Assembly: GCA_945871065.1 (NCBI GenBank)
Contig: CAMBUL010000005.1
Span: forward strand, 1,011-65,010
Direction of reading: 5' to 3'
DNA from: Chthoniobacter flavus
GTDB taxonomy: Bacteria > Verrucomicrobiota > Verrucomicrobiia > Chthoniobacterales > JACTMZ01
Length of the DNA stretch: 64,000 bases
Below the pieces are notes generated by a model. It was not told the origin of the DNA and searched no databases. It saw nothing but the letters and a program-made list of their open reading frames with translations. The position numbers and the translations under genes are program-made. Position 1 is the stretch's first letter. Each line of letters begins with the position of its first letter. This document shows, in pieces, positions 1-19,485 of this stretch.

Positions 1-249
1 CTGCCCCGCCTCGATCTTCCAGCGCCCCAAATCGCAGCCGCGGTAGACCGCATCAACCTCCAACTGCCTCAGCCATAAGCCAAACAAACCAAGTCCACAA
101 CCAAGGTCCACCACCGGCCCACCGGTTCTGGCCACCACCGCCCGCCCCGCTTCGAAAACCGGATCACTCCCCAACTTTCCCCGCACATAACCGCGCAGCC
201 AACGACTTCCCCCCACCGCATCGGCAATTGTCTCGGCCACCGCGTTCAT
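1..249 (-). CDS. class I SAM-dependent methyltransferase (N-terminal part only; gene runs off the left edge)
   Basis: Not in the ORF track because there is no stop in the window. The reverse-strand ATG at 249 overlaps the stop of the upstream gene (ATGA). The translation MNAVAETIADAVGGSRWLRGYV...GGPVVDLGCGLGLFGLWL carries the motif-I glycine loop (VVDLGCGxG). Confidence 0.55.
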   Translation of the reverse strand, partial: MNAVAETIADAVGGSRWLRGYVRGKLGSDPVFEAGRAVVARTGGPVVDLGCGLGLFGLWLRQLEVDAVYRGCDLGRWKIEAGQ

Positions 250-1604
250 CGGGCACAAGCCTCCCGGATCGCCCCCGCATCCACAACCACCCCGCGCGAC
301 AAGCACGCCGCCGCCTGACCCGCCGCCTGGCCCGTCGCCATGCTTGTGCCGATCACCCGCAGCGCAGCTTGGGCCTCGTGCGTGGCAGAGAAACATCTTC
401 CGGCCAGAAAAACATTGTCCGCATCTTGCGAACGCAAGGCCCGCAAAGGAACGCCGCACGCCGCGCCATTGTCCGGATAAACCAAACGCATGGCCGCCCC
501 CGCCTCGTGCCACTCGAGGGGCCAGAACGAAAAACAAACCGTATCCTCCGGCACCACACCGGACAGCACCTCATTCGCGGTGATAACATGCCGCCCCATC
601 ACCCGCCGGCTCTCGCGGATTCCGATGCGCTCCGGCCAACTGCATCCCTCTGCCTTCTCAAAACCCGCGGCTTCCCGACGCAAGAAATCGGTCAGCATCT
701 CGGCCGACTCCCGCGCCTCCACGGTCAATCGCCGCACCTGCACCTCATCGCAAGGATCGTAGTCCCCACCCCCCGCCGCCAAATCGAGCGTGACCCGCAC
801 CATGCCATCACGACAAGTCGGCCGCACCGCCGCACCGAGCGCCCCGGCGCCGAGACGCCCGTCCCGCACCGCGGCCACGAGTAAGGCAGACCAAGCCAAC
901 CGCGCCGCCGGCGCCAAGGCCGCACTGGCCACCGGCTGGAGACCGAAAATGTAAGCCGGGCGCTGAAGTTCCTGCCGGAGAGCAGACTCGGCAGAAAGGC
1001 TCACCGCCGCAGCCAGATTACCATCGCCGGTGGCCTCCACGAAGGCCGCAGCTTCAATCGTGACCCGTCCGGCCTGCGTGGTGAGGTGCAGGGATTTCAC
1101 CCTCCTCCCCTCCACTTCGCCCCCGGTCACCCGCGCATTTCTCATCACTTCAATGGTCTTGGCTTCCGTCACCCAGTCCTCGCACAGGTGGGCAAAAGCT
1201 TCCGGTTCCTGGAGCAAGACATCGAGCCGGCCGAAACGTCGCGGACCGCAGGCCCCGCCGGACGCGACAAGCCGCCGGGCAAATTCCATGGCCAGGCCCG
1301 TTTGCAACGGCTCGGCCCCGGGGCCCGCCCCGCAGCGATAAAGTCCGCAAATACTGTGCACCTTCGCCGCCCGCACATTCCCGCCCAGACCCGCTTCGCG
1401 CTCGACGAGCAAGACCCGCGCCCCGGACCGTGAGGCCGAGACGGCCGCCGCCACCCCGGCCGGACCTCCCCCCGCCACGACCACATCGAAAGAGCGCGTC
1501 TTCACAGCATCCGCCTCCGGCCGAAGATGATCACAGTCATGGTAAAAATCGCTTGGTCCACTTAGCCTCCCGGCAGTACGCATCATGCGAACGTCGCCCT
1601 CCAC
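246..1604 (-). CDS. FAD-dependent oxidoreductase
   Basis: 452-aa ORF with an N-terminal dinucleotide fold, VVVAGGGPAGVAAAVSASRSGARVLLVEREAGLGGN. The start is uncertain (M at 1604, 1586 or 1583) because the ORF overlaps the divergent gene at 1585. Confidence 0.75.
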   Translation of the reverse strand: MEGDVRMMRTAGRLSGPSDFYHDCDHLRPEADAVKTRSFDVVVAGGGPAGVAAAVSASRSGARVLLVEREAGLGGNVRAAKVHSICGLYRCGAGPGAEPLQTGLAMEFARRLVASGGACGPRRFGRLDVLLQEPEAFAHLCEDWVTEAKTIEVMRNARVTGGEVEGRRVKSLHLTTQAGRVTIEAAAFVEATGDGNLAAAVSLSAESALRQELQRPAYIFGLQPVASAALAPAARLAWSALLVAAVRDGRLGAGALGAAVRPTCRDGMVRVTLDLAAGGGDYDPCDEVQVRRLTVEARESAEMLTDFLRREAAGFEKAEGCSWPERIGIRESRRVMGRHVITANEVLSGVVPEDTVCFSFWPLEWHEAGAAMRLVYPDNGAACGVPLRALRSQDADNVFLAGRCFSATHEAQAALRVIGTSMATGQAAGQAAACLSRGVVVDAGAIREACAR

Positions 1605-2391
1605 GATCCAGTTGGAAAATCCGGAACTGGCGCCCGCGCCGGGGCCGGTCCGCCATCACGTGCCCTATTGGCGGCAGGCCGCCGCCCACCTCTACTTCAT
1701 CGCCGCAGGTCTGCAACTCACTCTCCGTGCCGCACGGCGCGGGCGCCGCACGGCTTACGGCGAGCGGTTGCACCTCCATCGGCGTTTTGCCCGCTACATC
1801 GCGCTCCTCGAGCGCTGGGGCATTATCCAATTGGAATTCTCGGGATTCGAACAAGCCGCAGGATGGAAAGGCTCCGTCATCGCGCCGAATCATCCATCCA
1901 TCCTCGACGCCATCATCCTTTGCTCCCGCCTCCCCGGTCTCGACTGCGTGATGAACTCCCGCCTGCTCCACGATCCCGTCATGTCGGGCACCGCCCATCT
2001 CTGCGGCTTCATCCGCAACGACACCCCGCTTTCCATGGTCCGCGATACCCGCGATCGCCTTCTAGCCGGCCACAATGTCCTCATCTTCCCCGAAGGCACG
2101 CGCACCAAGGGATGCCCCGTTGGTTCCTTCCGCCACGGATTCGCCCTGGCCGCGGCTCGCGCCGGAGCGCCGGTGCGCACCATCCTGATCGAATGCGACT
2201 CCGATTATTTCGGACGCAATTTCAACTTCTTCCGTCCCGCCCCGTGCCCCATCCGCTACCGCCTGACCGCGTCGCAGGTTTTTTTCCCGCAGATTGACGA
2301 AGATGCCCGGGCAACATCCGCGGAAATCGAAGAATTCTTCCACGCCTCTTTGCTGCGCGACGAAAACGGCGTGCGGCGTCGCGCCTCATGA
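1585..2391 (+). CDS. 1-acyl-sn-glycerol-3-phosphate (lysophospholipid) acyltransferase, PlsC family
   Basis: HX4D motif (NHPSILD) and FPEGTRT motif. The stop overlaps the next start (ATGA). An alternative GTG start near 1660 is possible. Confidence 0.8.
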   Translation: MRTSPSTIQLENPELAPAPGPVRHHVPYWRQAAAHLYFIAAGLQLTLRAARRGRRTAYGERLHLHRRFARYIALLERWGIIQLEFSGFEQAAGWKGSVIAPNHPSILDAIILCSRLPGLDCVMNSRLLHDPVMSGTAHLCGFIRNDTPLSMVRDTRDRLLAGHNVLIFPEGTRTKGCPVGSFRHGFALAAARAGAPVRTILIECDSDYFGRNFNFFRPAPCPIRYRLTASQVFFPQIDEDARATSAEIEEFFHASLLRDENGVRRRAS

Positions 2392-3158
2392 TGCCCGATC
2401 CGCACCGCGGGGTCATCATCCCCAGCTACAACTCCGGACCGCTGCTCGAAAGCACGGTGCGCGCGGTGCTCGAGACTTGGCGCCCGGTCGTGGTGGTGGT
2501 GGACGGCTCGACGGATGGCAGCGAGCAAAGGATTCGCGACCTGGCTGCGCGGCAAAAGGACCTCCGTGTCATCTCCCATCCGGTGAACAAGGGGAAAGGC
2601 GCCGCCGTTTTGACCGGCTTGGAATTCGCACAGTCGGAAGGCTGGACCCACGCCGCCGTCTTTGATGCCGATGGACAACATGAAACCTCCGACCTGCCCG
2701 GTTTTATGGAGGCATCCCGCCTGCACCCTCAGGCCATGATTCTCGGACGCCCCGTGTTCGGTCCCGACGCTCCAACCGTGCGGGTGGTCGGCCGCCGCGC
2801 CGGCAATTGGTTCGCCAACCTCGAGACCTGGTGGGGTGGCATCGATGACTCCCTCTTCGGTCTGCGCGTTTACCCCGTCGGTCCGGCTCTGGAAACTTTG
2901 CGTTCGATCCGGGGCGGACGACGGTTCGATTTCGACACCCAACTCGCCGTGCGACTTTATTGGCGCGGTGTGCCGCCGATGAACCTGCCCACCCGCGTGC
3001 ATTATCATGCCGCCAACCTCGGCGGGATTAGCCACTTCGACTACCTGCGCGACAACCTCCTCCTCGCCCGCGCGCATGCCGGACTCCTTCTCCAGTCGTT
3101 TTTACTCGCCCCGCGGCTTGCCCGCTACCGCCCGCGCCGCCCACTCGTCGCCCCATGA
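2388..3158 (+). CDS. glycosyltransferase family 2
   Basis: GVIIPSYNSGPLL, VVVVDGSTDGS and DAD (FDADGQH) motifs. Start and stop overlap on both sides by 4 nt. Confidence 0.8.
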   Translation: MMPDPHRGVIIPSYNSGPLLESTVRAVLETWRPVVVVVDGSTDGSEQRIRDLAARQKDLRVISHPVNKGKGAAVLTGLEFAQSEGWTHAAVFDADGQHETSDLPGFMEASRLHPQAMILGRPVFGPDAPTVRVVGRRAGNWFANLETWWGGIDDSLFGLRVYPVGPALETLRSIRGGRRFDFDTQLAVRLYWRGVPPMNLPTRVHYHAANLGGISHFDYLRDNLLLARAHAGLLLQSFLLAPRLARYRPRRPLVAP

Positions 3159-3928
3159 AGGCGGAACTCCGGCGTCGCCTCGGCTTCACGCTTTCCGGCC
3201 TTTGCGCCGCAGGTGCGGCTGTTCACGCCCTCCGCGGGAATCCGGCCCGCGCCCATCGCTGGGGCATGCTCGCCACCGCAGCTTTTCTTGGCCCGACCCT
3301 CATTCCGAACTGTCCTTGGAATGGACCCGTCCTCCGGCATTTGCGCACCCGCGAGCGTGAAGTCTGGCTGACTATCGATGACGGACCCGACCCGCAAGAC
3401 ACCCCGGAAATTCTCGACGTGCTCGCCCGTCATGACGCTCGTGCCAGCTTCTTCGCCATCGGCCACAAAGTGTGGCGCTACCCCGCAGCGGCCCGCGCGG
3501 TGGTTGCGGCCGGTCACGAGCTGCACAACCACACATGGTCGCACCCCGCCGGTTCATTCTGGGCCGCCTCGCCTTCTTGCGCCCGCCACGAGATGAGCGC
3601 CGCAAGCAACGCCATCCGCCAAGTCACCGCGCAAAATCCGCGCTTTTTCCGCGCCCCGGCCGGATTGGCCAATCCATTCGTCCATACCGCGGCGGCAAAA
3701 GCCGGCCTCCGCGTTGTCGGATGGTCCGCGCGCGGTTTCGATGGCGTGCCGCACGAACCGGATGTCGTGGTGGACCGCATTGTCCGACGCCTCCACGCCG
3801 GAGCGATCATCCTCCTCCATGAAGGCCCCGTTTCCGGACTCCGGCCCGGCACCCGCGCCCGCACCCTTGAACGCCTGCTTGGCAAATTATCCGCCCTCGG
3901 CTATGGCACCGCCTGCCCGTCTGCCTGA
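3155..3928 (+). CDS. polysaccharide deacetylase (NodB homology domain)
   Basis: LTIDDGPDP and HNHTWSHP metal-binding motifs, preceded by an N-terminal hydrophobic segment. Confidence 0.8.
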   Translation: MKAELRRRLGFTLSGLCAAGAAVHALRGNPARAHRWGMLATAAFLGPTLIPNCPWNGPVLRHLRTREREVWLTIDDGPDPQDTPEILDVLARHDARASFFAIGHKVWRYPAAARAVVAAGHELHNHTWSHPAGSFWAASPSCARHEMSAASNAIRQVTAQNPRFFRAPAGLANPFVHTAAAKAGLRVVGWSARGFDGVPHEPDVVVDRIVRRLHAGAIILLHEGPVSGLRPGTRARTLERLLGKLSALGYGTACPSA

Positions 3929-3979
3929 CCAGCACGGCCTTTACTTGACCACTGAAATTCCTAAATTGGGAATCTCGCG

Positions 3980-4249
3980 ATGGCTGAAGTAACAATTGAC
4001 CTTCTCAAAGAACTGCTGGTGGAAAACTGCATGGTTAAAGTCGACCCGGAGACCATCCAAGCGGACACTCCGCTTTTCGGGCCGGAAAGCATCGGGCTCG
4101 ACTCACTCGATGCCCTGCAAATGGCCATCGCGGTTGAAAAACAATACGGGCTCGCCATCGGCGACCCCGCCACAGCCCGCGACGCCCTGCAGAGCCTCGG
4201 CGTCCTCCACGGCTGGATCACCCAGCGGCTCGCCGCCCAGGCCTCATGA
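3980..4249 (+). CDS. acyl carrier protein
   Basis: 89 aa with the phosphopantetheine site GLDSLDALQMAIAVE. Confidence 0.85.
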   Translation: MAEVTIDLLKELLVENCMVKVDPETIQADTPLFGPESIGLDSLDALQMAIAVEKQYGLAIGDPATARDALQSLGVLHGWITQRLAAQAS

Positions 4250-5514
4250 CTCCGCACCGTCAGTCCTACGATGTCGCCATCATCGGCGGTGGCCCGGCCG
4301 GCAGCGCCGCCGGCACCAGACTCGCGCGCGCCGGGCTCCGCGTCACCATTCTCGAAAAGGCAAAATTCCCCCGCTTCTGCGTCGGCGAATCCCTCCTGCC
4401 GCACGGCAATGACCTGCTCAAGGAAATCGGCGTCTGGGACAAACTCGAGCAAGCCGGCTTTCTCCGCAAATACGGCGCGGAATTCAGCACACCCGACGGC
4501 GAACGGCAAAACCGCCTCTGGTTCGGCGAGAACCTCGCCCCGCAGCACGAATACACCTACCAAGTGGAACGCGCCTCTTTCGACCAACTCCTTCTTGAGC
4601 ACGCGCGTGAAAACGGCTGCACCGTGCAGGAGGAAACGCGCGTCACGGCACTGCACGATGCACCCGGCGCGCCGATCACTCTCCACGCCGAAGGACCGGC
4701 GGGACGGACCGAGCTGACCGCTCGTTGGGTCGTCGATGCCAGCGGGCGCTGTGCCTTCGCCGGTTCCCGGGCAGGACTGCGCCGTCGCGGCACGCAAAAA
4801 GTCCGCCGCGTCGCCATCTACGCACATTTTGCAGGCGCCACCCGCCACGAAGGCAAAGCCGAAGGTCATATCACCATCATCCGCACCGCCGGCGGATGGT
4901 TCTGGCTCATTCCTCTGGCCGGTGACCGGATGTCCGTCGGCCTCGTTCTCCCCGCCGGAGAAGTCAAAGGGGAAGGCGATTATAATGACCTCTTCGCTGC
5001 CGCCGTGGCCGCCGCACCCGCTGTCGCCCAACGTCTGGACTCCGCCCGACGCATCACTCCGCTGCGCGCCACCGGCGACTACAGCTGGAAGTTTTCTTCC
5101 TTCGCCACGCGGCGCGTCTTGCTCACCGGGGACGCCGCCGGTTTCGTTGATCCCATCTTTTCCTCCGGAGTCATGCTCGCCCTGCAGTCCGGTCTCCGCG
5201 CGGCCGACCTCCTGGTCAAAGCCGACCGTTGCGGCCGCTCCCTGCGGCCTTGGGAGCGGTGGGCTTATACCCGGAGCGTCACCGGATGGATGAACCGCTA
5301 TGCCCGGCTCATCCGCTCCTTCTACGACCGGGCGGGTTTCGAAGTTTTCATGAGCCCGCAACCCGTCCTGCAACTGCCCCGCAGCGTGGCGCGCCTCGTA
5401 GGCGGGCAGACCGATCCCGGCCTGGCCGACCGTCTCCGCCTCCGTCTCTTCGACACCGTCTGCCGCCTGCAACGCCGCCTCAACATCGCCCCGCCTATCC
5501 CTTCGCTGCGCTGA
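4246..5514 (+). CDS. flavin-dependent halogenase
   Basis: Three motifs are present: GxGxxG (IIGGGPAGSAAG), the Lys-containing KFPRFCVGESLLP, and WxWxIP (GGWFWLIPL). This is the motif set of FADH2-dependent halogenases. Confidence 0.75.
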   Translation: MTPHRQSYDVAIIGGGPAGSAAGTRLARAGLRVTILEKAKFPRFCVGESLLPHGNDLLKEIGVWDKLEQAGFLRKYGAEFSTPDGERQNRLWFGENLAPQHEYTYQVERASFDQLLLEHARENGCTVQEETRVTALHDAPGAPITLHAEGPAGRTELTARWVVDASGRCAFAGSRAGLRRRGTQKVRRVAIYAHFAGATRHEGKAEGHITIIRTAGGWFWLIPLAGDRMSVGLVLPAGEVKGEGDYNDLFAAAVAAAPAVAQRLDSARRITPLRATGDYSWKFSSFATRRVLLTGDAAGFVDPIFSSGVMLALQSGLRAADLLVKADRCGRSLRPWERWAYTRSVTGWMNRYARLIRSFYDRAGFEVFMSPQPVLQLPRSVARLVGGQTDPGLADRLRLRLFDTVCRLQRRLNIAPPIPSLR

Positions 5515-5580
5515 CCGGGCCTTCGGCGCCGCCACTCACGCCAGTTTCCAAGTCCAGTCTCCCGTCTCCCGACCCGCTCC

Positions 5581-8754: not shown

Positions 8755-8755
8755 C

Positions 8756-9373
8756 ATGAATCCCGCCGGAATCTTTCTTCTTTTTGCCGTATTAAGCGCA
8801 ACCGGTCTGGCCAGCGACCTTGCACCGTCCGACACGGTCGTTTTGGAAAAACGCTTTTTCGCCGCCCAGCAAAAAACCCGCACCCTCGAGGCCGCCTTCA
8901 CCCAGACTATCTCGGCGCCCGGTCTCGCAAGTCCCACCATCAGCCGCGGACAGCTTTTTTACCGTGGACCTGACGACCTTCGCATTTCTTATCAAGTCCC
9001 GCCCGGGGAACTCATGCAACTCGACGCCGGAACCTTCACCACCATCCGCACGGGCCGCGCTCCCCTTGCTCGCCCGGCCGGTCATCCCTCCGCCCGGGCG
9101 CTCGGAGCCCTGCGCGACATCCTGCGCGGGACTCGCCCGCCGGGGGATATGCAAGTGTCCGTCACACGTCAGGCTGGGAACTACCTCGTCGTCCTTGTTC
9201 CCTCAACCCCGAGCAACTTCCAACCAGAACGGATCGAGAACACGATCGATGCAGACACCATGCAACTCCGCTCCATGAGCCTGACCTTGCCGCACGGCAC
9301 CGTCATGCGGTTCGATTTTTCCGCGGTCCGACGCAACCATGTTTTGCCCGCCGCCACTTTCCGTCTTCCATGA
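8756..9373 (+). CDS. LolA-like outer-membrane lipoprotein carrier protein
   Basis: An internal ATG at 8756, one nt after the exporter stop, gives a signal peptide (MNPAGIFLLFAVLSATGLASD). Size (~205 aa) and position next to the MMPL exporter match the LolA-like partner of APE-type clusters. The call is weak on motifs alone. Confidence 0.5.
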   Translation: MNPAGIFLLFAVLSATGLASDLAPSDTVVLEKRFFAAQQKTRTLEAAFTQTISAPGLASPTISRGQLFYRGPDDLRISYQVPPGELMQLDAGTFTTIRTGRAPLARPAGHPSARALGALRDILRGTRPPGDMQVSVTRQAGNYLVVLVPSTPSNFQPERIENTIDADTMQLRSMSLTLPHGTVMRFDFSAVRRNHVLPAATFRLP

Positions 9374-9786
9374 ACATACCGCTCACCCCGCACGGACCAG
9401 GCTTCCGGTTCATCGACCGCTTCGTGAAACATGATGCCACCAGCGGCACGGGTTGGAAAACCCTCGACCCCGACTTGCCGTTTTTCGCCGACCATTTTCC
9501 CGGACGCCCCCTCATGCCTGCCGTGCTCCTTGTCGAGTGCGCCGCCCAAGCCGCCGGCGTTCTCTGGATGCAGGATTCCGCGCAACCCGAGACGCCGCTT
9601 TTCCTCGCCGGCATCGACCAATTCCGTGTCCTCGGGCCCGTCGCACCCGGGGAGACCCTTGAAACACACATCACCTTGGTCAAGGAACTCGGCGCTCTCG
9701 CCCAATTCGAAGCCGAGTCCCGCGTGGCCGATCGCCCCGTAGCCCGCGGACGATTCATGATGAGTCGGCAATTGGCCGGCGCGTGA
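9370..9786 (+). CDS. 3-hydroxyacyl-ACP dehydratase (FabZ/FabA-like hotdog)
   Basis: FFADHFPGRPLMPAVLLVECAAQAAG active-site region; 4-nt overlap with the upstream gene. Confidence 0.75.
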   Translation: MNIPLTPHGPGFRFIDRFVKHDATSGTGWKTLDPDLPFFADHFPGRPLMPAVLLVECAAQAAGVLWMQDSAQPETPLFLAGIDQFRVLGPVAPGETLETHITLVKELGALAQFEAESRVADRPVARGRFMMSRQLAGA

Positions 9787-9836
9787 GCAAGAGAAAATGC
9801 CTCCTCATCGCCCCTGCGGTGGGTTGAAATAAAGAA

Positions 9837-11054
9837 GTGTCCGCCACCCCGACTCCCCAAATCGCGATCACCGGCCTCGGCTGCGTCACCGCCTTGGGCG
9901 GAGATGCGACCTCGACCTGGGAAGCACTCCACACCGGTCGTTCGGCACGTGGCCCCCTGACCGCCATCGCCGTCGACGGTTGCCGCGTCACCGAAGGGGC
10001 AGAAGCAAGCCTCCCCTCTTGGCCCTCGTGGCCGGAAAAACGCCTGCGACGACTCAGCCGCTCGACCCGTCTCGCCCTGCCGGCCGTCCGTCAGGCCCTA
10101 AGCGAAGCCCGCTTGCTCGATGCGAATGACCGCTGCCTGCTGCCCCGACTCGAAATGTCGGTCAGCACCACGGCCTGCGGCATGGAAAAGGGCGAAGAAT
10201 TCCTCCGCGCACTCTGGAGCAAGACCCGCACCGGCCAATCCGCGCGCGTCGCCCAATACCAGTCTCAAGCTCAGACCGGCGCGATTCATGATCTCTTCGG
10301 TTTCGACGGACCGGTCATGACAGTGGCCAATGCCTGCGCCGGTGGCGGCAATGCCATCGGCCACGGCGCGGACCTTATCCGCAGCGGGATGACGGATATC
10401 GTCCTGGCCGGCGGCTACGAGGCGCTGAGCGAACTCGTCTTTGCCGGTTTTGACGGACTCCAGTCTCTTGCACCAGAGGCCTGCCGTCCCTTTGACCGCG
10501 GACGCCGTGGACTCATGCTCGGCGAAGGCGCCGCCTTTCTTGTGCTGGAAAATGCCGGCCGTGCGCGTGCGCGCGGCGCGAAGATCCTTGGGTATCTCGC
10601 TGGCTACGGCCAGACCACAGACACCCACCACCTGACCCGACCTGCCCCCGACGGCGCTCCGCTCGAACGCGCCATGCGGCGCGCACTCGAACAAGGCCGG
10701 ATCAACGCGTCCCAAGTCGGCTACGTCAACGCCCACGGAACCGGGACACCTTTCAACGACGGAGCCGAAGCACAGGCTTTCCACCGCGTCTTCGGTGCCG
10801 GCCAAACCAAACTCAGTTCGACCAAAGCCGCTCTTGGCCACACCCTCGGCGCGGCCGGTGCCATCGAGGCCGTTCTTTGTCTGTTTGCCCTGCAAAGCGG
10901 ACAACTCCCGCCGCAGATCAATCTTCTCGATCCCGAACCCCTCGTCGCCACGGCCCTCGTCGGGGTTGGCGAAAAAGCCGACCTCTCCGCCGCAATGAGC
11001 GTGAACCTCGGGTTCGGCGGATCCAACGCCGCAGTCCTTTTCACCCGCGCATGA
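9837..11054 (+). CDS. beta-ketoacyl-ACP synthase (KAS I/II type)
   Basis: GTG start. The Cys-His-His triad is seen in context: ANACAGGGNAIG, NAHGTGTPFND, LGHTLGAAGAIE. Confidence 0.85.
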   Translation: MSATPTPQIAITGLGCVTALGGDATSTWEALHTGRSARGPLTAIAVDGCRVTEGAEASLPSWPSWPEKRLRRLSRSTRLALPAVRQALSEARLLDANDRCLLPRLEMSVSTTACGMEKGEEFLRALWSKTRTGQSARVAQYQSQAQTGAIHDLFGFDGPVMTVANACAGGGNAIGHGADLIRSGMTDIVLAGGYEALSELVFAGFDGLQSLAPEACRPFDRGRRGLMLGEGAAFLVLENAGRARARGAKILGYLAGYGQTTDTHHLTRPAPDGAPLERAMRRALEQGRINASQVGYVNAHGTGTPFNDGAEAQAFHRVFGAGQTKLSSTKAALGHTLGAAGAIEAVLCLFALQSGQLPPQINLLDPEPLVATALVGVGEKADLSAAMSVNLGFGGSNAAVLFTRA

Positions 11055-12019
11055 ACCTTTCCCTCCTCTCCGCGGGCGGCGTCACGCCCGCTGGTCTCGG
11101 AACCGATGCGATCACCGCGCCCTGGCCGGTCACCGCCACGCACTCCCACGGGGGCGTCCCCGTGCAAGCTGGCCTGATCGAACAAAAAGATCCCTCACTC
11201 CTCCGCTGGCAACAGGAACCCCGCCTCCGCCGCGCCAGCCCGATCACCTACTTCATGATCGAGGCCGTCGAGCAGGCCCTTCAAGGCGCTCCGCACCTTG
11301 ACCGCGATCGCACCGGGGTCGTTGCCTCTTTTTTCCTCGGTTGCCTCGTTTACAGCGTTCGTTTCTACCGCCAGATCACCGAGGAAGGACGCCGCTTTGC
11401 CAGTCCTGTCCTCTTTCCCGAAACGGTTTTCAACAGCCCTCTCAGCCATGTGGTCGCCACGCTCGGCCTCGGGGGGCCGGTCTATTCGCAGATCGGGGAC
11501 AAAACCTGCTGGGCCTCCTCCCTCCGCACCGCGCAGTGTTGGCTCGCCAATGGCGACTGCGACCACGTGATCGTCCTCGCCGCCGAGGAGTTTGATCCGC
11601 ACGAAGTCGACGCCTTGCATTCCGGAGGTCTCCTGCGTGGCGGCCTGCAACCGTGTGAGGGCGCCATCGCTTTGTTGCTCGGTCCCTCCGCGAGCGGCCC
11701 CACGATTGGGGCCATCGCCGATGGCTATGACTTTCGCACCCGACAAGAAGTGTTGGAAGCCGCCGAACGTTGTCTCGCCGAATTCTCGCCGCCCACCCCC
11801 CTGCTCGATACCGCCACCGGATGGACCCGCACCGCCGCAGCCAAAATAGGCCGCTCCATCATCGGACCAAAAGCCACGCTTACGGAAGGCTTCACCCTCT
11901 CGGCGGCCGCCGACACCATGCGTGCGCTCGACATCGTGGCCTCCGGGCAATCTCCCGAAGTCATTGTCCCCGTCTGGGGCCTGACCCGGCAGGTCGCGGC
12001 CTACCGCGTTACCGCGTAA
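11051..12019 (+). CDS. ketosynthase-like partner protein (chain-length-factor-like; lacks the HGTGT and GH motifs)
   Basis: The ATG at 11051 overlaps the KS stop (ATGA), so the long upstream extension in the ORF track (10877) is rejected. Thiolase-like N-terminal half (RASPITYFMIEAVEQAL, PVYSQIGDKTCWASS), but no C-terminal His motifs are visible. Confidence 0.6.
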   Translation: MNLSLLSAGGVTPAGLGTDAITAPWPVTATHSHGGVPVQAGLIEQKDPSLLRWQQEPRLRRASPITYFMIEAVEQALQGAPHLDRDRTGVVASFFLGCLVYSVRFYRQITEEGRRFASPVLFPETVFNSPLSHVVATLGLGGPVYSQIGDKTCWASSLRTAQCWLANGDCDHVIVLAAEEFDPHEVDALHSGGLLRGGLQPCEGAIALLLGPSASGPTIGAIADGYDFRTRQEVLEAAERCLAEFSPPTPLLDTATGWTRTAAAKIGRSIIGPKATLTEGFTLSAAADTMRALDIVASGQSPEVIVPVWGLTRQVAAYRVTA

Positions 12020-13590
12020 TCCAAGACCTCGGGCCCCGCAACGACGGCGGGTTCTTCCACCACCTCTTGCTTTCTTCGTCCCCACGAACGCCATCCCTCG
12101 GTCAACTCCAGCCACGCCCAACCGGCCAACCCGCCCGCAATAACTTTGAGCAGATAAGGCACGCGGAAATTGAACCCCGGGAAAAGATCCCGCTGCCGCG
12201 CGTTGCTCCGCCCGAAGGTGCCGTTCCTCCGGCGCTCCCGCGCCATGGCGGCAAAGCGCCGGTTGTAGCCTCGCATCAAGGCAAAGAAAGGACCCGCCTC
12301 CCGCGCCGCATAGGGCGGCTCGGCGAAACCCTCCGTTCCATCGGAAAACACCGGACGCGCGACAAACAGATAGTAAAGACCGATATCCAGCCGGAAAGCC
12401 AAACGCATAATGTCATAGTCGCCCAAGTAGTCGTATTTGTCCTCGTAAAGCGCCTCGAACATGCGGCGGTAGCTCGTCGTAAAATCCCCGTTGTGCTTGG
12501 CCAGCAACGGAGCAAGGTCCTCGCCAGCCCGCCAAGCCCGGATCAAGCGCACCGCGCCGATCGCCGTGAAAGCAATCCAATCCATGCCCGGACTGTAAAG
12601 CGGATCGAGAAAGGCCGACGCGTCGCCAGTCAGGACAAAGCCGTCCCCCGCCTGCAGCCGCGAGCAATAGGGCAGATTGCGCCGGAAATGGACGTCACCG
12701 CCGACGAACTCCGCACCTGCCATCATCTCCCGGGCCGCAGGGTGCCGGCCGAGAAAATCACGCAACTTTTCCCCGACCGGCATCTTGTCTTCCGGCCAAT
12801 CGGCGCAACGCTGGTCCAAGACCACGCCGATACTCGTGTCGCCGCCTTTCAACGCGATCCACCAAGCCCACCACCCGTCACCCGCGATGTGGTTTGTCGC
12901 GGTGCCGCGGATACCGACATACGAACCCTGCCAACCCTCGTGCCGGCCGGTCAGCTCCGCCGCATCCCAGTCCCCGGCCCCGCGCCAACGTGACCACGCG
13001 GAAAGCGTGCGATGACGCGTGTTGGGCTCGAGCCAATCGTTGGCTCTGGCCAGCATGGCCTTGATCCCCGAGGCATCCACCACCCAACGGGCCCGAACCG
13101 TTCGCGCACCGGCCACCGTCTTCACCTCGAGGGTCTGATAACCGCCGGAAGCCAAGGCAACGGACGCCACCGTAGCCGGACGCCAAACCTCCGCACCCGC
13201 TTCTTCCGCCCGCCGGAGCACTTCTTCGTCCACCACCGAGCGGTCGATGAGGAACGATGGAACGGCGGACAAATACCGCCCACCGATTTCCGAACAGTCA
13301 CCGAGATCCTGCGTCTCGCGGTTGGCGAACCAAAAGCGCAGACCGTTCTTGGTCAGCTGCGTCTGCGTGAGAAACTGCGTCAGCCCGAGCACGCGGCACA
13401 AAAAATAGGCACTCACTTCGACCGTTGCCTCACCGACGCGACGCTTGAAAGCCTCGTTCTTCTCGATCACCACAATCCGCAGAGCGGGATCCTCGCGCCG
13501 GAGCAGAAGCGCCGCCGCCGCGCCACTCAGCGCACCGCCGATCACCGCGACGTCACACTCGGTGATCGCCTCTGCCGCTGTCTCTTTCAT
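12001..13590 (-). CDS. FAD-dependent halogenase-like oxidoreductase (tryptophan-halogenase family-like)
   Basis: VAVIGGALSGAAAAL dinucleotide fold, KRRVGEATVE (GEAT motif) and a degenerate WxWxI(P->A) motif (GWWAWWIAL). The start was taken at M 13590; the ORF extends to 13629. Confidence 0.65.
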   Translation of the reverse strand: MKETAAEAITECDVAVIGGALSGAAAALLLRREDPALRIVVIEKNEAFKRRVGEATVEVSAYFLCRVLGLTQFLTQTQLTKNGLRFWFANRETQDLGDCSEIGGRYLSAVPSFLIDRSVVDEEVLRRAEEAGAEVWRPATVASVALASGGYQTLEVKTVAGARTVRARWVVDASGIKAMLARANDWLEPNTRHRTLSAWSRWRGAGDWDAAELTGRHEGWQGSYVGIRGTATNHIAGDGWWAWWIALKGGDTSIGVVLDQRCADWPEDKMPVGEKLRDFLGRHPAAREMMAGAEFVGGDVHFRRNLPYCSRLQAGDGFVLTGDASAFLDPLYSPGMDWIAFTAIGAVRLIRAWRAGEDLAPLLAKHNGDFTTSYRRMFEALYEDKYDYLGDYDIMRLAFRLDIGLYYLFVARPVFSDGTEGFAEPPYAAREAGPFFALMRGYNRRFAAMARERRRNGTFGRSNARQRDLFPGFNFRVPYLLKVIAGGLAGWAWLELTEGWRSWGRRKQEVVEEPAVVAGPEVLDYAVTR

Positions 13591-13652
13591 GCCTTGAGGA
13601 GAATATGTGTCTCGACGTGAAGCACGCAATCGTGCAATTCCCCGCCCTCCGC

Positions 13653-14618
13653 ATGCGCAAACACTGGCTCCTCATCCTCCAAGTCGCGCTATCCTTCTTC
13701 CTGCTCTGGAGGATCTTCGGCCACCCCACCCTGCGCCAGGAAGCGGCGCGGTTGCTCGGGGAGGCCGATCTCGTCTGGCTGCTGGGCGGGCTCTTCACCG
13801 CCTTACTCACCGAGTTTCTCTGCTCCGTGAGGTGGTGGCTCATGCTCCGGATCTTCGGCGTACCCGTCGGATTCGGCAGAACCTGCGCCTTCGCCGGAGC
13901 CGGACTTTTCTTTTCCCTCGGACTCCCCGGTTCCGGCGGGGGCGATGCCTTCCGCATTATCTATGTCATGCGTCTTCATCCGACGCGCAAACTCCGAGCC
14001 GCTCTCTCGGTGCTGGCCGACCGCCTGTGCGGACTTTTCGCCTTGCTGCTCACCGTGGTCTTTCCCGTCTTGCGCTATGCGCAATTCGCGGCGCATCCCG
14101 AATCCTACGCGATCCTTGCCGCCGCCGGTACCGTGCTGGTTATCGCCGCCTTGCTTGTCCTCCTCTGGTGGTTGACCACCTGGCCCAGCCTCCACCAAAA
14201 GTGGATTCATCTCGCCCCGGCCAAGATTCGCCCCCAAGCCGTGCGACTCGGGCACATCTTCGCGTGGATGGGTCGTCGCCCTCAACCGGTTTTCGCCGCG
14301 ATCGCGCTCTCCTATGGCGCCCTCTTGGCCCATTTCACGACCTATTGGTTCAGCGTCCGCGCCTTCGGCCTGCCGCTTTCGCCCGGCGACATCTTCGCCA
14401 TCATGCCGCTGGTCGACACCCTCACCATGCTGCCCGTGACCCTTTACGGCATCGGACTACGGGAAACGCTCTTCGAATATCTGCTGGGCGGACTCTTCGG
14501 CGTCGCCCCGGGGGCCGCCACGCTGGCCTCCCTTGGGGGCTTCTCCCTCCAAGCCGCCGTCGCCCTCCTCGGGGGTCTCCTTATTCCCTTCACCGCTCCG
14601 CGAAAAACAACTGCTTAA
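13653..14618 (+). CDS. flippase-like / lysylphosphatidylglycerol-synthase-TM-like integral membrane protein
   Basis: Polytopic hydrophobic protein (about 8 TM segments by eye). The start was taken at ATG 13653 (MRKHWLLILQVALSFFLLW); the ORF begins at 13605. The family call is from general resemblance only. Confidence 0.5.
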   Translation: MRKHWLLILQVALSFFLLWRIFGHPTLRQEAARLLGEADLVWLLGGLFTALLTEFLCSVRWWLMLRIFGVPVGFGRTCAFAGAGLFFSLGLPGSGGGDAFRIIYVMRLHPTRKLRAALSVLADRLCGLFALLLTVVFPVLRYAQFAAHPESYAILAAAGTVLVIAALLVLLWWLTTWPSLHQKWIHLAPAKIRPQAVRLGHIFAWMGRRPQPVFAAIALSYGALLAHFTTYWFSVRAFGLPLSPGDIFAIMPLVDTLTMLPVTLYGIGLRETLFEYLLGGLFGVAPGAATLASLGGFSLQAAVALLGGLLIPFTAPRKTTA

Positions 14619-16075
14619 ACGCGTCGGACTTTGCCGCTGGCCGTGCGTGGCAACTCACTCACCATCTGGTAGCGCACGGGAATTTTATACCCGGCCAACC
14701 GCCTGCGGCAATGAGCCGACAACTCGCCATCAGTCGGCGGAAAGGTCCCGTCGACCGGCAAAATGTCCGCCACCGGTAACATGCCCCACCGCGCATGCTC
14801 CTCGCCATGAACCCGCGCATCAACCACCCCCTCATGCCGGCGCAACACTTCCTCGATCTCCTCGGGGAAGCACTTGCTCCCGCCGACATTGATCACGGAC
14901 TTCAGCCGGCCGACCAACCGGATACTGCCGTCCGCTTCCTGCCGCGCCAGATCACCCGTGTGAAACCACCCGTCGGCCATGACCTCCTGCCGCGGACACC
15001 ATGGTGACAAATAGGCGTCAAACATACCCGGGCCGCGCAGACACAATCCACCTTCCCTGCCGTTCCCTTCCAACCGCAGTTCGAAATCGTCCGGCCGGCC
15101 GACCACCATGGAGTCTTCACCCGACGTGCTCAACAACGGCAAGCCCGCTTCGATGATGCCGAAGCCCTGCGCCAAGCGGACTCCGTAGCGACGGACAAAA
15201 GCTCCGGCCGTTTCCGGCGCCAACGGCGCGGCGGTCGAAACCGCCAGACGCAACCCGGGCCAATCCCGCTCGGACGCCTCGGCCGCGAGCAACGCCGCTT
15301 GGAACGGCGATCCATAAAAGACCGTCGCCCCGTATTGGCAGGCGGCTGTCAGCAAATCACCGGCCAAGGATCCCTCCGGCAGCACCACGGTCGCGCCTTC
15401 GCGCAAATACAGCAAAATCGACACCGCGAAATGATGCGCCATCGGCAAGGTCCACAACACACGGTCGGTTCCGCCGATCCCCAAGCGCCGGTTCGCGGAA
15501 TCCAAACGCTCGCGCAATGTCCCATGCGATAGCACCACCCCCTTGCTCGCGCCGGTTGTTCCGGAGCTGAAACGAATAAAAGCGGGACAAACGCTCTCGA
15601 AATCCTCCACCGGAAAACATGGCTCTTCCGCCGCCAGGCGTTCCCACCGCAGACCACCGCCGATCTCATGGCGCTCCGACTCGTCGGCCGCCCGCTCCTG
15701 ACCTCCCTGCGAAAGCACGCCGTGCAACGCCGTCGTTCGGGCCAACATCGAGCGCTCGTCCGCCGGCAGTTCCCCGGCCACCGGCACCGCGCACCCCCCA
15801 GCCCTCATCACCGCCAACATGAGCACCGCATGCTGCACTCCATCCGGACAACGCACCCCGATCCGCGCCACACCCTCGGCGGGGAACCCCGGCAACCGCA
15901 CTATCACCGTCGCCCACCTCTCCACTTCGGCCACCAGACGGCCGAAGGATAATTCTCCGTCACGCCCGACAAAGGCCGCCCGCTCTGGCTCCTCCGCCGC
16001 CCGGGCGAAAATCGCCTCCACAATGCTGTCCGATAACGCTTTCACGGATCGCACAGACTGAACCGTCCGCGCCAC
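14615..16075 (-). CDS. AMP-dependent synthetase/ligase (acyl- or aryl-adenylating enzyme)
   Basis: Adenylate-forming motifs FSSGTTGASKGVVLSH, GWFHTGDLA, YKIP and SGKVRR. Confidence 0.85.
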   Translation of the reverse strand: MARTVQSVRSVKALSDSIVEAIFARAAEEPERAAFVGRDGELSFGRLVAEVERWATVIVRLPGFPAEGVARIGVRCPDGVQHAVLMLAVMRAGGCAVPVAGELPADERSMLARTTALHGVLSQGGQERAADESERHEIGGGLRWERLAAEEPCFPVEDFESVCPAFIRFSSGTTGASKGVVLSHGTLRERLDSANRRLGIGGTDRVLWTLPMAHHFAVSILLYLREGATVVLPEGSLAGDLLTAACQYGATVFYGSPFQAALLAAEASERDWPGLRLAVSTAAPLAPETAGAFVRRYGVRLAQGFGIIEAGLPLLSTSGEDSMVVGRPDDFELRLEGNGREGGLCLRGPGMFDAYLSPWCPRQEVMADGWFHTGDLARQEADGSIRLVGRLKSVINVGGSKCFPEEIEEVLRRHEGVVDARVHGEEHARWGMLPVADILPVDGTFPPTDGELSAHCRRRLAGYKIPVRYQMVSELPRTASGKVRRV

Positions 16076-16090
16076 CGCTTCAATCCGCGA

Positions 16091-17392
16091 CTACTGCGCC
16101 CCCAGCAAGTCGGCCCGTATTGCGGACCACATCAAGGCCCGTTCGTCCGCGGACAAAACACCGTCCCGCCAGCAGAGCGAGGCCGTCAACCGCCCCTCCC
16201 GCTCGCTGAAAAACAGTCCTGTCCCCGGCGGTTGCGGCACCGAAGGCACATGCCAACCGTCCACGATCGAGCCACCGCAAAACTCCCGTACCCCCGGCAG
16301 AAATTCTCCGGTGTGGGCGTGATAAAAGGAAGCCAGCTGCCCGGAAGCCTCGCGCCGCAAAAATCGCCGGTAAAGCGGCGCCGGCAAGCGACGCATCCAG
16401 TCGATCATGACGAGAAACGCCCCATCGAACTTGTCACGCGTCATCGCCGCGAATTGTCCGTGTAACGCCCGCGCCGTGTCCTCCACCGAGGCCGGATCCG
16501 GCAGCGGCCGCGCGAAAAACAACTGCGACACCTGATTTTGAAAGATCGGCCCGCGCGCTCCCCTCTTCCGTCCCTGCACCGAAATCGTACATTCCAGCGA
16601 GCCGTTCTCTTGTCCCCGCGCCCGGAACACGGCGGCGTGCGCCCGCATCGTGACCGCGAGAAACCACGGCAAGGCGAAGATCCCGCCCGTCACCGGATCG
16701 GCCCGCCGTTTCATGGCCGCCGTTTCCTCACGGGAGAATCGCACCGCTTCGAAACAAGCCCGGCCCGCGCGCGCCGGCGCCCCGCCCAAAGAAACCACCC
16801 GCTCGGACCGCAAAGACCAATACCGCTCGAGAAAAGGCCGCACCGCGCGAAATTCTTGCCACCATGACCGGTGGCGCGCAAAGGGCAGCGCATGGGAATT
16901 CACCTCCGGCTTGGCCGGCACCTCTTCACCCAACCGCGCCACCTCGGCCAAAACCAATTCCACTCCGCGCGCATCGAGCAGCAAATGACTCCAACTCATC
17001 AGCACGACGAAACCTTCGCTCGCCGGCCACACGTCGAAGCGCAGTCGGCCCGGCCACTGGCCTTGCAAACGCTCTTCGGCCAACCCGCGCCAGTCTGCGC
17101 CGGCGGGATGAATTTCGACCGCCACCTCGGCCGTCTGGTCGCCACGCCACACGGGCACCGCTCCCGGCAGTCCGCGCTGCAACTTGGCGCCAAGGATGGG
17201 CTGACTCTCGGAAAACCTCGCCGCGGCCTCCCTCAAACGCTCCACCTCGAACCCGCGTCCCACCTCCAACACAGTCACCCCGACATGACGGCCCTGCCCG
17301 GACCGCTCCATCAGATCCTCGAGCGCCAGCAGGTAGCAGTCGCACCCGCCCAAGGGCGCGCGCAGCTTGGCGCGGGACGGACTCGGCGTCAT
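16091..17392 (-). CDS. condensation-domain-like acyltransferase (HHxxxDG-superfamily, variant SHLLLDA)
   Basis: 433 aa with MSWSHLLLDARGVE at the position expected for the HHxxxDG catalytic motif of NRPS C / PapA5 / WS-DGAT type enzymes. The start overlaps the ACP stop by 4 nt. Confidence 0.55.
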   Translation of the reverse strand: MTPSPSRAKLRAPLGGCDCYLLALEDLMERSGQGRHVGVTVLEVGRGFEVERLREAAARFSESQPILGAKLQRGLPGAVPVWRGDQTAEVAVEIHPAGADWRGLAEERLQGQWPGRLRFDVWPASEGFVVLMSWSHLLLDARGVELVLAEVARLGEEVPAKPEVNSHALPFARHRSWWQEFRAVRPFLERYWSLRSERVVSLGGAPARAGRACFEAVRFSREETAAMKRRADPVTGGIFALPWFLAVTMRAHAAVFRARGQENGSLECTISVQGRKRGARGPIFQNQVSQLFFARPLPDPASVEDTARALHGQFAAMTRDKFDGAFLVMIDWMRRLPAPLYRRFLRREASGQLASFYHAHTGEFLPGVREFCGGSIVDGWHVPSVPQPPGTGLFFSEREGRLTASLCWRDGVLSADERALMWSAIRADLLGAQ

Positions 17393-17646
17393 GCCGGCGC
17401 GGCGCAGCGCCGCACCATGGCAGCCAGACTGGAAGCCGTGGAAAAATTATCCCGGGTCACCGCGGATTCCGGCACCCTCACCCCGAAGCGTTCCTCGATC
17501 GAAATCATCAATTGCATGATACCCATCGAATCAAGACCCGCCGCGAACAAATCGGTCTCCACCGTCAGCGGTGCGCCGCCCTCAAATAACTTCTCGCGCA
17601 CCAAGCCCAACAGAGCGTCCTCAAGATTCGCGGGTAATCCGTGCAT
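17389..17646 (-). CDS. acyl carrier protein
   Basis: 85 aa with the phosphopantetheine site AGLDSMGIMQLMISIEERFGV. Confidence 0.8.
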   Translation of the reverse strand: MHGLPANLEDALLGLVREKLFEGGAPLTVETDLFAAGLDSMGIMQLMISIEERFGVRVPESAVTRDNFSTASSLAAMVRRCAAPA

Positions 17647-19411: not shown

Positions 19412-19485
19412 GCGACCCTATTCGGTCGCCCGGAGACACCAGCCACTCGGTCAGACGTGGCGTTGTTGTCATCCGCCCCCGCCCC

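Follow-up and report, generated by a model that had tools for sequence, protein, structure and literature searches.

What an uncultured freshwater member of the Chthoniobacterales makes with a 19-gene block of ~22 kb, in which a ketosynthase (KS) and acyl carrier proteins (ACPs) are encoded beside halogenases, acyltransferases and an exporter, is the question raised by the 64,000-nucleotide stretch analyzed here (the window: positions 1,011 to 65,010 of contig CAMBUL010000005.1, assembly GCA_945871065.1, Chthoniobacter flavus). The gene content suggests that this is probably a complete or nearly complete biosynthesis-and-export cluster for a xanthomonadin-type (halogenated) aryl-polyene (APE) lipid, by analogy with characterized systems, the product itself being unproven. 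An earlier, sequence-only reading had proposed a halogenase-bearing cluster of the aryl-polyene, flexirubin or xanthomonadin kind. The class is supported as halogenase-bearing and aryl-polyene/xanthomonadin-type by the KS triad with its inactive partner, homologies to Ape proteins, the conserved gene set and the published pig and arc gene lists. Genes were called from a listing of open reading frames (ORFs) and from Pfam and NCBIfam scans of the window proteins, and all 17 genes previously claimed are present with their domains (lengths in amino acids, aa):

1..249, minus strand: S-adenosylmethionine (SAM) methyltransferase, 5' part (83 codons of a 229-aa gene); Methyltransf_23/25/31 in the full copy on metagenome contig L001, 4256-4945(-)
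246..1583, minus strand: FAD-dependent oxidoreductase (FADox), 445 aa; PF12831, 263 bits
1585..2391, plus strand: PlsC/LPLAT-type acyltransferase (AT1); PF01553
2388..3158, plus strand: GT2 glycosyltransferase; PF00535
3155..3928, plus strand: NodB-type (polysaccharide) de-N-acetylase; PF01522, 110 bits; NodB model 124 bits, below cut-off
3980..4249, plus strand: ACP1, carrier protein of the ApeE/XanC type; PF00550
4246..5514, plus strand: flavin-dependent halogenase 1; PF04820
5581..8754, plus strand: MMPL and Lip_A_acyltrans fusion, 1057 aa; PF03176 and PF03279
8756..9373, plus strand: LolA-like periplasmic lipid carrier with signal peptide; PF03548 and flexirubin LolA2 model, both weak
9370..9786, plus strand: FabA/FabZ-like dehydratase; PF07977, 59 bits; weak ApeI-like Pfam match
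9837..11054, plus strand: ketosynthase; PF00109 and PF02801
11051..12019, plus strand: KS-like partner, 322 aa; weak PF00109 N-terminal match only
12001..13590, minus strand: halogenase-like flavoprotein 2, 529 aa; PF04820, 66 bits; convergent with the KS partner
13605..14618, plus strand: LPG_synthase_TM membrane protein (MprF flippase-domain type); PF03706, 102 bits
14615..16075, minus strand: AMP-forming ligase (ANL family); PF00501 and PF13193
16091..17392, minus strand: stand-alone protein with a predicted condensation-domain fold, 433 aa; no Pfam or NCBIfam match; fold model
17389..17646, minus strand: ACP2; PF00550, 47 bits

In the KS the Cys-His-His triad is intact (NACAGG, HGTGT, GHTLGA), whereas in the translationally coupled partner a Lys replaces the active-site Cys and both catalytic His are missing. 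Because the triad is kept in one protein and lost in the other, we regard the two as a ketosynthase with a chain-length-factor (CLF)-like partner. The partner has 561 homologues, mostly unnamed, and its 322 aa fit the size and architecture of XCC3999 of Xanthomonas and ORF16 of Lysobacter (~320-340 aa), the partners of the ketosynthases XCC3998 and ORF17, which are known from descriptions (PMC3691225). The assignment of the KS is based on curated hidden Markov model cut-offs together with gene context, with Escherichia coli FabF, ApeO and ApeR as the only reference sequences (32-35% identical); in the BLASTP comparisons at large, the APE cluster of E. coli CFT073 and the fab genes served as references. 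The KS scores 315 bits against the FabF equivalog model (cut-off 494), is 34% identical to FabF (178 bits) and 32% identical to both ApeR and ApeO, and has 9s5h as its best match in the Protein Data Bank (PDB). The sole hot-dog dehydratase (DH) of the cluster reaches 87 bits against the FabZ equivalog (cut-off 113) and matches ApeI weakly by BLAST (E 1e-3); a second DH, as in the ApeI/ApeP pair, was not found in the cluster. ACP1, whose gene is translationally coupled to that of halogenase 1, is 34% identical to ApeE (E 7e-10), matches AcpP at E 1e-3 and scores 19 bits against the AcpP equivalog model (cut-off 70). KS, DH and ACP1 thus all fall below the NCBI curated cut-offs for housekeeping FabF, FabZ and AcpP, in line with the dedicated role given to them by the sequence-only reading.

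The genes for anchor building and export have recognizable counterparts in E. coli, where the APE lipid is an APE esterified to N-acetylgalactosamine (GalNAc)-phosphate-glycerol, ApeJ combining a glycosyltransferase (GT) with an acyltransferase and ApeD being a glycerol acyltransferase (bioRxiv 10.1101/2020.12.19.423268). AT1 is 27% identical to ApeD (E 9e-22), and the GT2 protein is 38% identical over 236 aa to residues 9-238 of ApeJ (E 4e-51). The best NCBIfam match of the latter, below cut-off, is the polyprenyl-phospho-GalNAc synthase PpgS, and from its sequence the enzyme likely transfers an N-acetylhexosamine(-phosphate). In the fusion protein, an MMPL/RND exporter (~residues 1-760) that is 33% identical to ApeM is followed by an LpxL-like acyltransferase (~residues 776-1051) that is 25% identical to ApeJ residues 261-545 (E 2e-8), so that the counterparts of the N- and C-terminal domains of ApeJ are here two separate proteins. 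The NodB-type deacetylase has no counterpart in the E. coli APE cluster by BLASTP. On L001 the LolA-like gene encodes 205 aa from a start at 8756 that does not lie inside the MMPL gene (N-terminus MNPAGIFLLFAVLSATGLA); its product scores 39 bits against the flexirubin LolA2 model (cut-off 125).

Both flavoproteins of the PF04820 family retain features of halogenases. In halogenase 1, GGWFWLIPL fits the WxWxIP motif and the Lys is present in FLRKYG; among proteins of known structure it is nearest to named halogenases such as CmlS, ChlB4 and PltA (E 1e-54 to 1e-39), several of which act on carrier-protein-bound substrates. Halogenase 2 keeps the Lys in LTKNG and carries GWWAWWIAL, with Pro changed to Ala in the motif; its nearest PDB entry is the halogenase 3e1t (E 2e-20), and orthologues occur in ~20 related loci (55-98% identity). 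The sequence-only reading had taken two halogenases as a departure from the textbook clusters. This does not hold: the pair is no anomaly, since the Xanthomonas xanthomonadin (pig) cluster also has two halogenase-type genes, XCC4001 and XCC4013/XanB1 (PMC3949708 Table S4; PMC3838355).

How closely does the locus as a whole resemble characterized systems? The core of the APE family, as defined after Grammbitter et al., comprises KS, CLF, ACP, DH, ketoreductase (KR) and MMPL transporter. The window encodes an active KS, an inactive CLF-like partner, two dedicated ACPs, an MMPL exporter with a LolA-like carrier, and anchor enzymes of the ApeJ and ApeD types; a cluster KR (ApeQ), the thioesterase (TE) ApeK and an ApeH-type ligase are lacking, and the ligase encoded here is of another ANL subfamily. 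With the APE clusters of E. coli CFT073 and Xenorhabdus doucetiae (apeA-R) it shares counterparts of both ApeJ domains, ApeD, ApeE and ApeM, a LolA-like carrier, and a full-triad KS with an inactive partner. It differs in having one KS instead of two, in encoding the ApeJ domains separately, one of the two as part of the exporter protein, and in its halogenases and deacetylase, which the E. coli cluster lacks. The underlying logic is likely the same, with the polyene passed from an ACP to an aminosugar-phosphoglycerolipid and then exported.

Most genes map one to one on the published Xanthomonas pig and Azoarcus arc lists (PMC3949708 Table 1, Table S4). With the pig cluster (XCC3998-XCC4015) and its homologue in Lysobacter enzymogenes, compared by published gene lists and not by sequences, the locus shares a KS with a ~330-aa "hypothetical" partner containing a KS N-terminal domain, a dolichyl-P-mannose-synthase-like GT, two halogenase-type flavoproteins and an ACP directly beside a halogenase (PMC3949708; PMC3838355), as well as an exporter, a LolA-like protein, acyltransferases, a FabA/Z-like DH and an AMP-ligase (PMC3949708; PMC3691225). 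The product of the Xanthomonas cluster is a yellow, brominated aryl polyene of the outer membrane, xanthomonadin I being dibrominated. In contrast to our locus, Xanthomonas has the KR FabG3/XanH, the chorismatase XanB2, which supplies 3-/4-hydroxybenzoate, and two DHs; here there is neither KR nor chorismatase and a single DH, the exporter is fused to an acyltransferase, and the host belongs to Verrucomicrobiota and not to Proteobacteria. Extra genes relative to pig are those for the NodB deacetylase, the methyltransferase, the PF12831 flavoprotein, the condensation-fold protein, the second ACP and the MprF-flippase-type protein. The arcuflavin clusters of Azoarcus sp. BH72 (arcA-X) share a methyltransferase, a polysaccharide deacetylase (ArcN), an exporter, a LolA-like protein, acyltransferases, a DH, a trio of AMP-ligase, hypothetical protein and ACP, a halogenase, a GT, a KS and a KS-like partner (PMC3949708). 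In Azoarcus two loci divide the pathway between them (PMC3949708), which is also the case in some relatives of the verrucomicrobial cluster; unlike the locus described here, Azoarcus has a KR (ArcH), a chorismatase (ArcB) and genes for dialkylresorcinol (DAR).

The gene set is also conserved as a unit in related genomes, as a dedicated cluster was expected to be. We surveyed 80 related genome loci, all but a handful with Verrucomicrobiota labels, by tblastn with 20 cluster proteins. Of the 47 loci of at least 14 kb, KS and partner are present in 46-47 and adjoin in 46, while ACP1, the LpxL-like acyltransferase and the DH are each found in 42. Other parts vary more. Among the related loci, MMPL and LpxL-like parts form a single frame in 15 and occur unjoined in 13; the LpxL-like part alone was found in 26 and the MMPL part alone in 6. 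The core is thus conserved across Verrucomicrobiota, with a collinear block in Chthoniobacterales genomes: the block from FADox to ACP2 is entire and collinear in L007-L010, L012, L013 and L091, and the KS-like partner is 94-95% identical to proteins of metagenome-assembled genomes (MAGs) labelled Chthoniobacterales or Chthoniobacter flavus. A different arrangement is seen in L095 (JGI 3300005515, 1797-14638), where KS, partner, ACP, halogenase, MMPL/LpxL, LolA, two ACPs, the condensation-like protein, FADox, ligase and methyltransferase follow one another in one direction throughout; no FabZ-like DH, PlsC acyltransferase or GT2 was found in the 21 kb of this locus, and a third halogenase-like gene lies after a deacetylase. 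L066, labelled betaproteobacterial, has a KS partner 40% identical to ours together with ACP, MMPL, LolA, DH and ligase, with a FabG-like KR ~9 kb further on. In L073 (8609-10864, a Verrucomicrobia MAG), KS and KS-like partner form a single 751-aa ORF, either a true fusion or an assembly or frameshift artefact.

Within the window, the ten genes from the PlsC-type acyltransferase to the KS-like partner occupy 1585-12019 of the plus strand, and the 4-nt overlaps reported at 2388, 3155, 4246, 9370 and 11051 are ATGA in five of five cases; a sixth, at 17389-17392, joins the genes of the 433-aa protein and ACP2. The cluster had been described as truncated by the left edge. It is true that the methyltransferase gene is cut, but the loss is slight. 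L001, identical to the window at 12,384 of 12,391 bases (99.94%), reaches 4.7 kb further left and holds the remainder of the methyltransferase gene, whose window translation is identical to the L001 copy, and, at 3832-4245, a gene for a 137-aa predicted lipoprotein (lipobox LLTAC, no Pfam family) co-directional with FADox and methyltransferase. This lipoprotein could be the outer-membrane acceptor, a LolB/ApeN analogue, of the export route. Beyond it lie unrelated genes (an unknown, an entericidin-like peptide, a Prc protease), and since the flank adds only these two items before them, the cluster is barely truncated. On the right, genes unrelated to the cluster, HSP20 among them, come after the ACP in L091. 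Pentapeptide-repeat and MgtE genes were considered as members and rejected, the former occurring only in the closest relatives and the latter in no locus. The divergent start codons of FADox and acyltransferase (1583/1585) lie 1 nt apart and those of halogenase 2 and the flippase-type gene (13590/13605) 14 nt apart, gaps that therefore leave no room for intergenic promoters; the starts at 1583/1585 may be over-extended, since the same gap measures 77 nt in L091. Promoter/terminator and Rfam scans gave nothing informative for the cluster.

Several functions expected of such a pathway could not be located. Searches by tblastn with FabG and ApeQ found no KR on L001 and only a weak match in the window, at 60.8-61.3 kb; within +-10 kb in the related loci, the only matches were a weak one to FabG in L057 (E 7e-4, ~3 kb from the KS partner) and that of the betaproteobacterial L066. 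A short-chain dehydrogenase/reductase (SDR) at 60580-62280 was rejected as a candidate KR, being an epimerase and SDR fusion in a polysaccharide cluster of lower GC content 43 kb away. The window, the left flank and the related verrucomicrobial loci likewise yielded no gene for a thioesterase, chorismatase or ammonia-lyase, and the scanned ORFs of window and flank gave no chorismatase/FkbO-type Pfam match. In BLASTP against the E. coli APE set there was no counterpart of ApeQ (KR), ApeK (TE), ApeP, ApeN, ApeG, ApeA, ApeB, ApeC or ApeH. The statement of the sequence-only reading that KR, TE and starter enzyme are missing from the first 17.6 kb therefore extends to the whole window, the left flank and related verrucomicrobial loci; recovery of the DNA left of position 1 had been suggested as a way to find them, and the L001 flank holds none. 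Since the cluster KR of Xanthomonas (FabG3/XanH) is essential and FabG1 is no substitute for it (PMC6859482), the absence of a KR is a real difference.

Some of these results weigh against an aryl-polyene lipid and have to be set beside the evidence for it. Neither pigment nor product has been observed, and the host is uncultured. No cluster-linked KR occurs in the 64-kb window, the 4.7-kb left flank or the verrucomicrobial relatives; the KS is no nearer to ApeO or ApeR than to FabF; and there is one hot-dog DH here and none in L095, as against two in the APE and pig clusters. By BLAST the KS partner does not resemble E. coli ApeC, for which reason we call it xanthomonadin-style and not ApeC style, and its orthology to XCC3999 and Lysobacter ORF16, judged from published descriptions, is putative. 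Lastly, the substrate of the ligase is not fixed by its nearest solved relatives.

Could the block then be an envelope-lipid cluster with no aromatic starter? In such a scenario the FabF-like KS pair, the FabZ-like DH and the ACPs would make an unusual, possibly halogenated fatty acyl chain, which the PlsC, LpxL-like, GT2 and NodB enzymes would put on an aminosugar-phospholipid or lipid-A-like anchor for export by MMPL and LolA. E. coli FabF (34%, 178 bits) is indeed slightly nearer to the KS than ApeR or ApeO are, FabZ is the best model of the DH, no KR, chorismatase or ammonia-lyase was found, fatty-acid-CoA ligases are the best NCBIfam matches of the ligase, and many of the enzymes are of lipid-A or phospholipid type. 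However, an inactive KS partner is a hallmark of type II polyketide synthase-like systems; homology is specifically to ApeJ, ApeD and ApeE, not to LpxL or AcpP; an electron-rich ring is required by halogenases of the phenol/pyrrole type, the family of both flavoproteins; the methyltransferase is linked to the ligase; and the gene list corresponds to the xanthomonadin and arcuflavin clusters. We therefore consider a purely fatty acyl product unlikely and retain the aryl-polyene lipid as the probable one.

The remaining genes raise a question of their own, as the sequence-only reading had placed an adenylating-enzyme operon downstream of the core. The operon is there; however, it is no appendage. 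Judging from gene order and orthology, the ligase-ACP2-C-like operon and the upstream FADox and methyltransferase are one conserved module (C-like denoting the 433-aa protein), which in the window is split around the core, with FADox and methyltransferase on the left and ligase, C-like and ACP2 on the right. L087-L090, L095 and L096 have these genes in a conserved operon that consists of ACP, C-like, PF12831 flavoprotein and AMP-ligase and, in some cases, also includes the methyltransferase. In L089, L095 and L096, orthologues of the flavoprotein (39-42% identity) sit between the C-like and ligase genes, and the module ligases are 50-51% identical to that of the window; methyltransferase orthologues directly follow the AMP-ligase in L095 and L096, and ACP2 is in tandem duplicate in L095. 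Single-sequence and profile searches of the PDB with the flavoprotein matched only the FAD/dinucleotide-binding motif. A flippase-type protein and a patatin often lie beside the operon, with MMPL and LolA upstream. LPG_synthase_TM orthologues adjoin the module in L089, L095 and L096, each paired with a patatin gene; the pairs of patatin-like phospholipase and LPG_synthase_TM occupy 13992-15843, 14604-16458 and 18588-20445, respectively. The position of the patatin gene in these relatives is that of halogenase 2 in the window, which has no patatin gene there.

The nearest PDB entries of the ligase are oxalate-, feruloyl-, o-succinylbenzoate- and benzoate-CoA ligases, and its best NCBIfam matches are fatty-acid-CoA ligases; there is no BLAST match to E. 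coli ApeH. We infer that it loads a carboxylic acid onto ACP2. Eighteen loci carry a ligase of the module type (39-95% identity), nearly all with a C-like gene, while 21 carry another ligase, 23-29% identical to that of the window, with a C-like gene in none of the 21. The two types are mutually exclusive across loci, and the second is ApeH-similar in all three loci examined. This distribution is compatible with the module standing in for a starter ligase of the ApeH/XanA2 type, and the split in ligase and C-like genes could equally reflect lineage.

It might be argued that two independent systems meet here, an APE-like core (1-12 kb) and a separate ligase-ACP-condensation lipid module with a flippase (12-17.6 kb), each exporting a different lipid. 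ACP, C-like, FADox and ligase do occur by themselves in L096 and together with MMPL and LolA in L087-L090, in most cases accompanied by a flippase-type protein and a patatin. No KS was found within 10 kb of the module in L089 and L096, and no KS or partner near the modules of this group up to 10 kb on each side (much less for L087, L088 and L090); many KS-partner loci, in turn, have no module within 10 kb. On the other hand, module and core are co-located in at least 15 loci and in at least four arrangements. In L095 the module operon stands directly behind KS, partner, ACP, halogenase, MMPL/LpxL and LolA, all in one direction and with no intervening genes, and in the window it flanks the core on both sides. 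Moreover, the MMPL of the loci that lack the KS pair is 46% identical to the MMPL fused here to the core acyltransferase, and Azoarcus provides an example of one pigment pathway over two loci (PMC3949708). A pair of unrelated systems is accordingly rather improbable, and core and module are best treated as parts of a single aryl-polyene pathway.

What kind of protein is encoded by the C-like gene, which the sequence-only reading had singled out as an anomaly? It has no Pfam or NCBIfam match, and a single-sequence search of the PDB returned only noise. Its profile matches chain 8s6l_A, deposited under a PapA5-type name, weakly (E 0.01), and in the family alignment W134, H136, D140 and G143 (H-x3-D) are invariant. 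The AlphaFold2 model (pLDDT 86, pTM 0.88) has AzeD (8s6l) as its top Foldseek match (TM 0.78, E 8e-21), followed by condensation (C), cyclization (Cy) and epimerization (E) domains of nonribosomal peptide synthetases (NRPS) and then the acetyltransferase TRI3; there are 295 PDB matches at E <= 1e-3, and C, Cy and E domains and their relatives dominate among the matches listed. According to the model, the protein belongs to the condensation-domain superfamily, with its two-lobed chloramphenicol acetyltransferase (CAT) fold and His-x3-Asp motif, and the anomaly is thus real. An exhaustive profile search gave 1227 cluster representatives at E <= 1e-3 and 371 at E <= 1e-30. All homologues found are unnamed metagenome or MAG proteins; those sampled that carry an organism name are from Verrucomicrobiota, and more distant ones are called "NRPS condensation-like uncharacterized protein". 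ArcU of Azoarcus was rejected as an equivalent, as it aligns weakly with XCC4011 ("membrane protein") and no Azoarcus protein appeared in the C-like search. Eight relatives of 542-584 aa (P0305, P0307, P0308, P0311, P0313, P0315, P0364, P0438) are fusions of an ACP2-like and a C-like domain, one of them annotated [quoted passage not shown], and ACP2 is 32-53% identical to the N-terminal domain of such fusions. Because the two domains are fused in these relatives, the C-like protein probably works on an ACP2-bound substrate.

AzeD of Pseudomonas aeruginosa (PDB 8S6L, C_standalone clade) and the C-like protein are both discrete proteins with the same predicted fold, in which the first His of HHxxxDG is replaced and the second kept; the likeness rests on structural rank and the substituted His, identity being ~14%. 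AzeD is a stand-alone dehydratase that acts after ketoreduction on a free, off-loaded alkaloid intermediate and extends its conjugated system (bioRxiv 10.64898/2026.07.17.738954). The C-like protein, in contrast, is coupled to an ACP, and in relatives it is fused to one.

The same structural match bears on a third scenario, a flexirubin-type product in which the condensation-fold protein would join the aryl polyene to a dialkylresorcinol through an ester bond. PapA5-type condensation-fold enzymes esterify carrier-bound acyl chains to hydroxyls, and the weak C-like profile match is to 8s6l_A, which is AzeD under a PapA5-type name; the LolA-like protein weakly matches the flexirubin LolA2 model (39 bits, cut-off 125), and xanthomonadin-DAR hybrids exist (PMC3949708). 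Yet by Pfam neither the window nor the flank encodes a candidate DarA/DarB-type resorcinol synthase, a tyrosine ammonia-lyase or a 4-coumarate ligase (DarA/DarB sequences were not used as queries and related loci were not searched for them), and all members found of the C-like family are metagenome or MAG proteins, with no cultured flexirubin producer among the sources. A flexirubin thus appears very improbable, and we return to the xanthomonadin-type lipid.

How might such a lipid be made? Gene content, homologies, catalytic motifs, block conservation and the ACP2-C-like fusions can be read directly, while the steps that follow are modelled on E. coli/Xenorhabdus APE and Xanthomonas/Azoarcus. 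The AMP-ligase would activate a carboxylic acid and load it on its dedicated ACP; since neither chorismatase nor ammonia-lyase is encoded, the acid, most likely hydroxybenzoate, would be drawn from primary metabolism. KS and inactive partner, ACP1 and the single FabZ-like DH would then carry out iterative Claisen condensation, reduction and dehydration to a conjugated polyene, with ketoreduction presumably provided in trans by housekeeping FabG or an unlinked paralogue. Halogenases 1 and 2 may halogenate a carrier-bound intermediate, and the methyltransferase may methylate the aryl head group. The PlsC-type acyltransferase, GT2 and NodB-type deacetylase are predicted to build an acylglycerol-phosphate-aminosugar anchor like that of APE lipids, to which the LpxL-like domain would move the polyene from the ACP; a thioesterase would therefore not be needed. 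Transport of the lipid to the outer membrane would fall to the flippase-type protein, the MMPL domain and the LolA-like carrier, probably together with the 137-aa lipoprotein.

For the C-like protein we favour acyl transfer to an amine or hydroxyl of the anchor over dehydration, giving the former about an even chance of being correct. On-carrier dehydration of an ACP2-bound intermediate, of the AzeD type, is a more tentative proposal. In a bolder and doubtful scenario, the module would be a portable "on-carrier" route replacing missing functions, either (a) through an ACP-dependent dehydratase of the AzeD kind or (b), with the flavoprotein, by building the aromatic head group on ACP2. Under (a), the C-like protein would take over the polyene-forming dehydrations, explaining why there is one hot-dog DH, or none as in L095; under (b), the head group would come from a non-aromatic acid (shikimate, cyclohexene-carboxylate), substituting for the XanB2 chorismatase. 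If either were true, this would be a new functional class of condensation-family enzymes and a KR-less, TE-less aryl-polyene lipid route in Verrucomicrobiota.

The rest of the window is of a different nature. GC content is ~0.64-0.66 up to 38 kb and ~0.58 beyond. Pfam annotation shows housekeeping genes at 19-40 kb, where the only RNA gene found in the window, tRNA-Val(GAC), lies at 21497-21571. A second envelope-lipid group at 32551-35450 comprises a LolA_like lipoprotein-sorting protein (32551-33279, minus strand), a PAP2 phosphatase (33271-33969) and a PMT_2/ArnT-like glycosyltransferase (33381-35450). From 41032 to 62280, mostly on the minus strand, extends a polysaccharide / O-antigen-type cluster (GC 0.56-0.60) that encodes a carbamoyltransferase, an RmlA-like nucleotidyltransferase, dTDP-glucose 4,6-dehydratase-like and RmlD-like proteins, four methyltransferases and several GT2s, one of them 1043 aa long, besides a radical SAM enzyme and an APH-type kinase; within it, the 566-aa fusion at 60580-62280 joins an epimerase/NAD_binding_4 domain to an SDR/KR domain. 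Between the housekeeping region and this cluster are a PIN-domain protein and a homologue of the 23S rRNA-intervening-sequence protein (43917-44318; 45658-46029).

Aryl-polyene lipids guard cells against oxidative and light stress, and the gene clusters thought to make them form one of the most widespread biosynthetic families in bacteria; what is known of their biochemistry has all been learned from Proteobacteria and Bacteroidetes. As a kind, the cluster is already known, since genome-mining papers list "arylpolyene" clusters in Verrucomicrobia, including Ca. Udaeobacter, without analysis; new here are the architecture, KR-less and with an exporter-acyltransferase fusion, and the module of ligase, ACP, condensation-fold protein and flavoprotein. 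The locus offers a well-bounded, conserved verrucomicrobial version from abundant uncultured freshwater Chthoniobacterales, and suggests that ketoreductase, thioesterase, starter synthase and second dehydratase are dispensable in cis. At the centre of its unstudied four- to five-gene module stands a stand-alone condensation-fold protein for which there is no Pfam model. Should off-loading, dehydration or head-group formation, for which an enzyme is missing, turn out to be the task of this protein, the chemistry known for the condensation family would be widened; if not, what was found would be a known type of cluster, correctly recognized in a phylum new to it.

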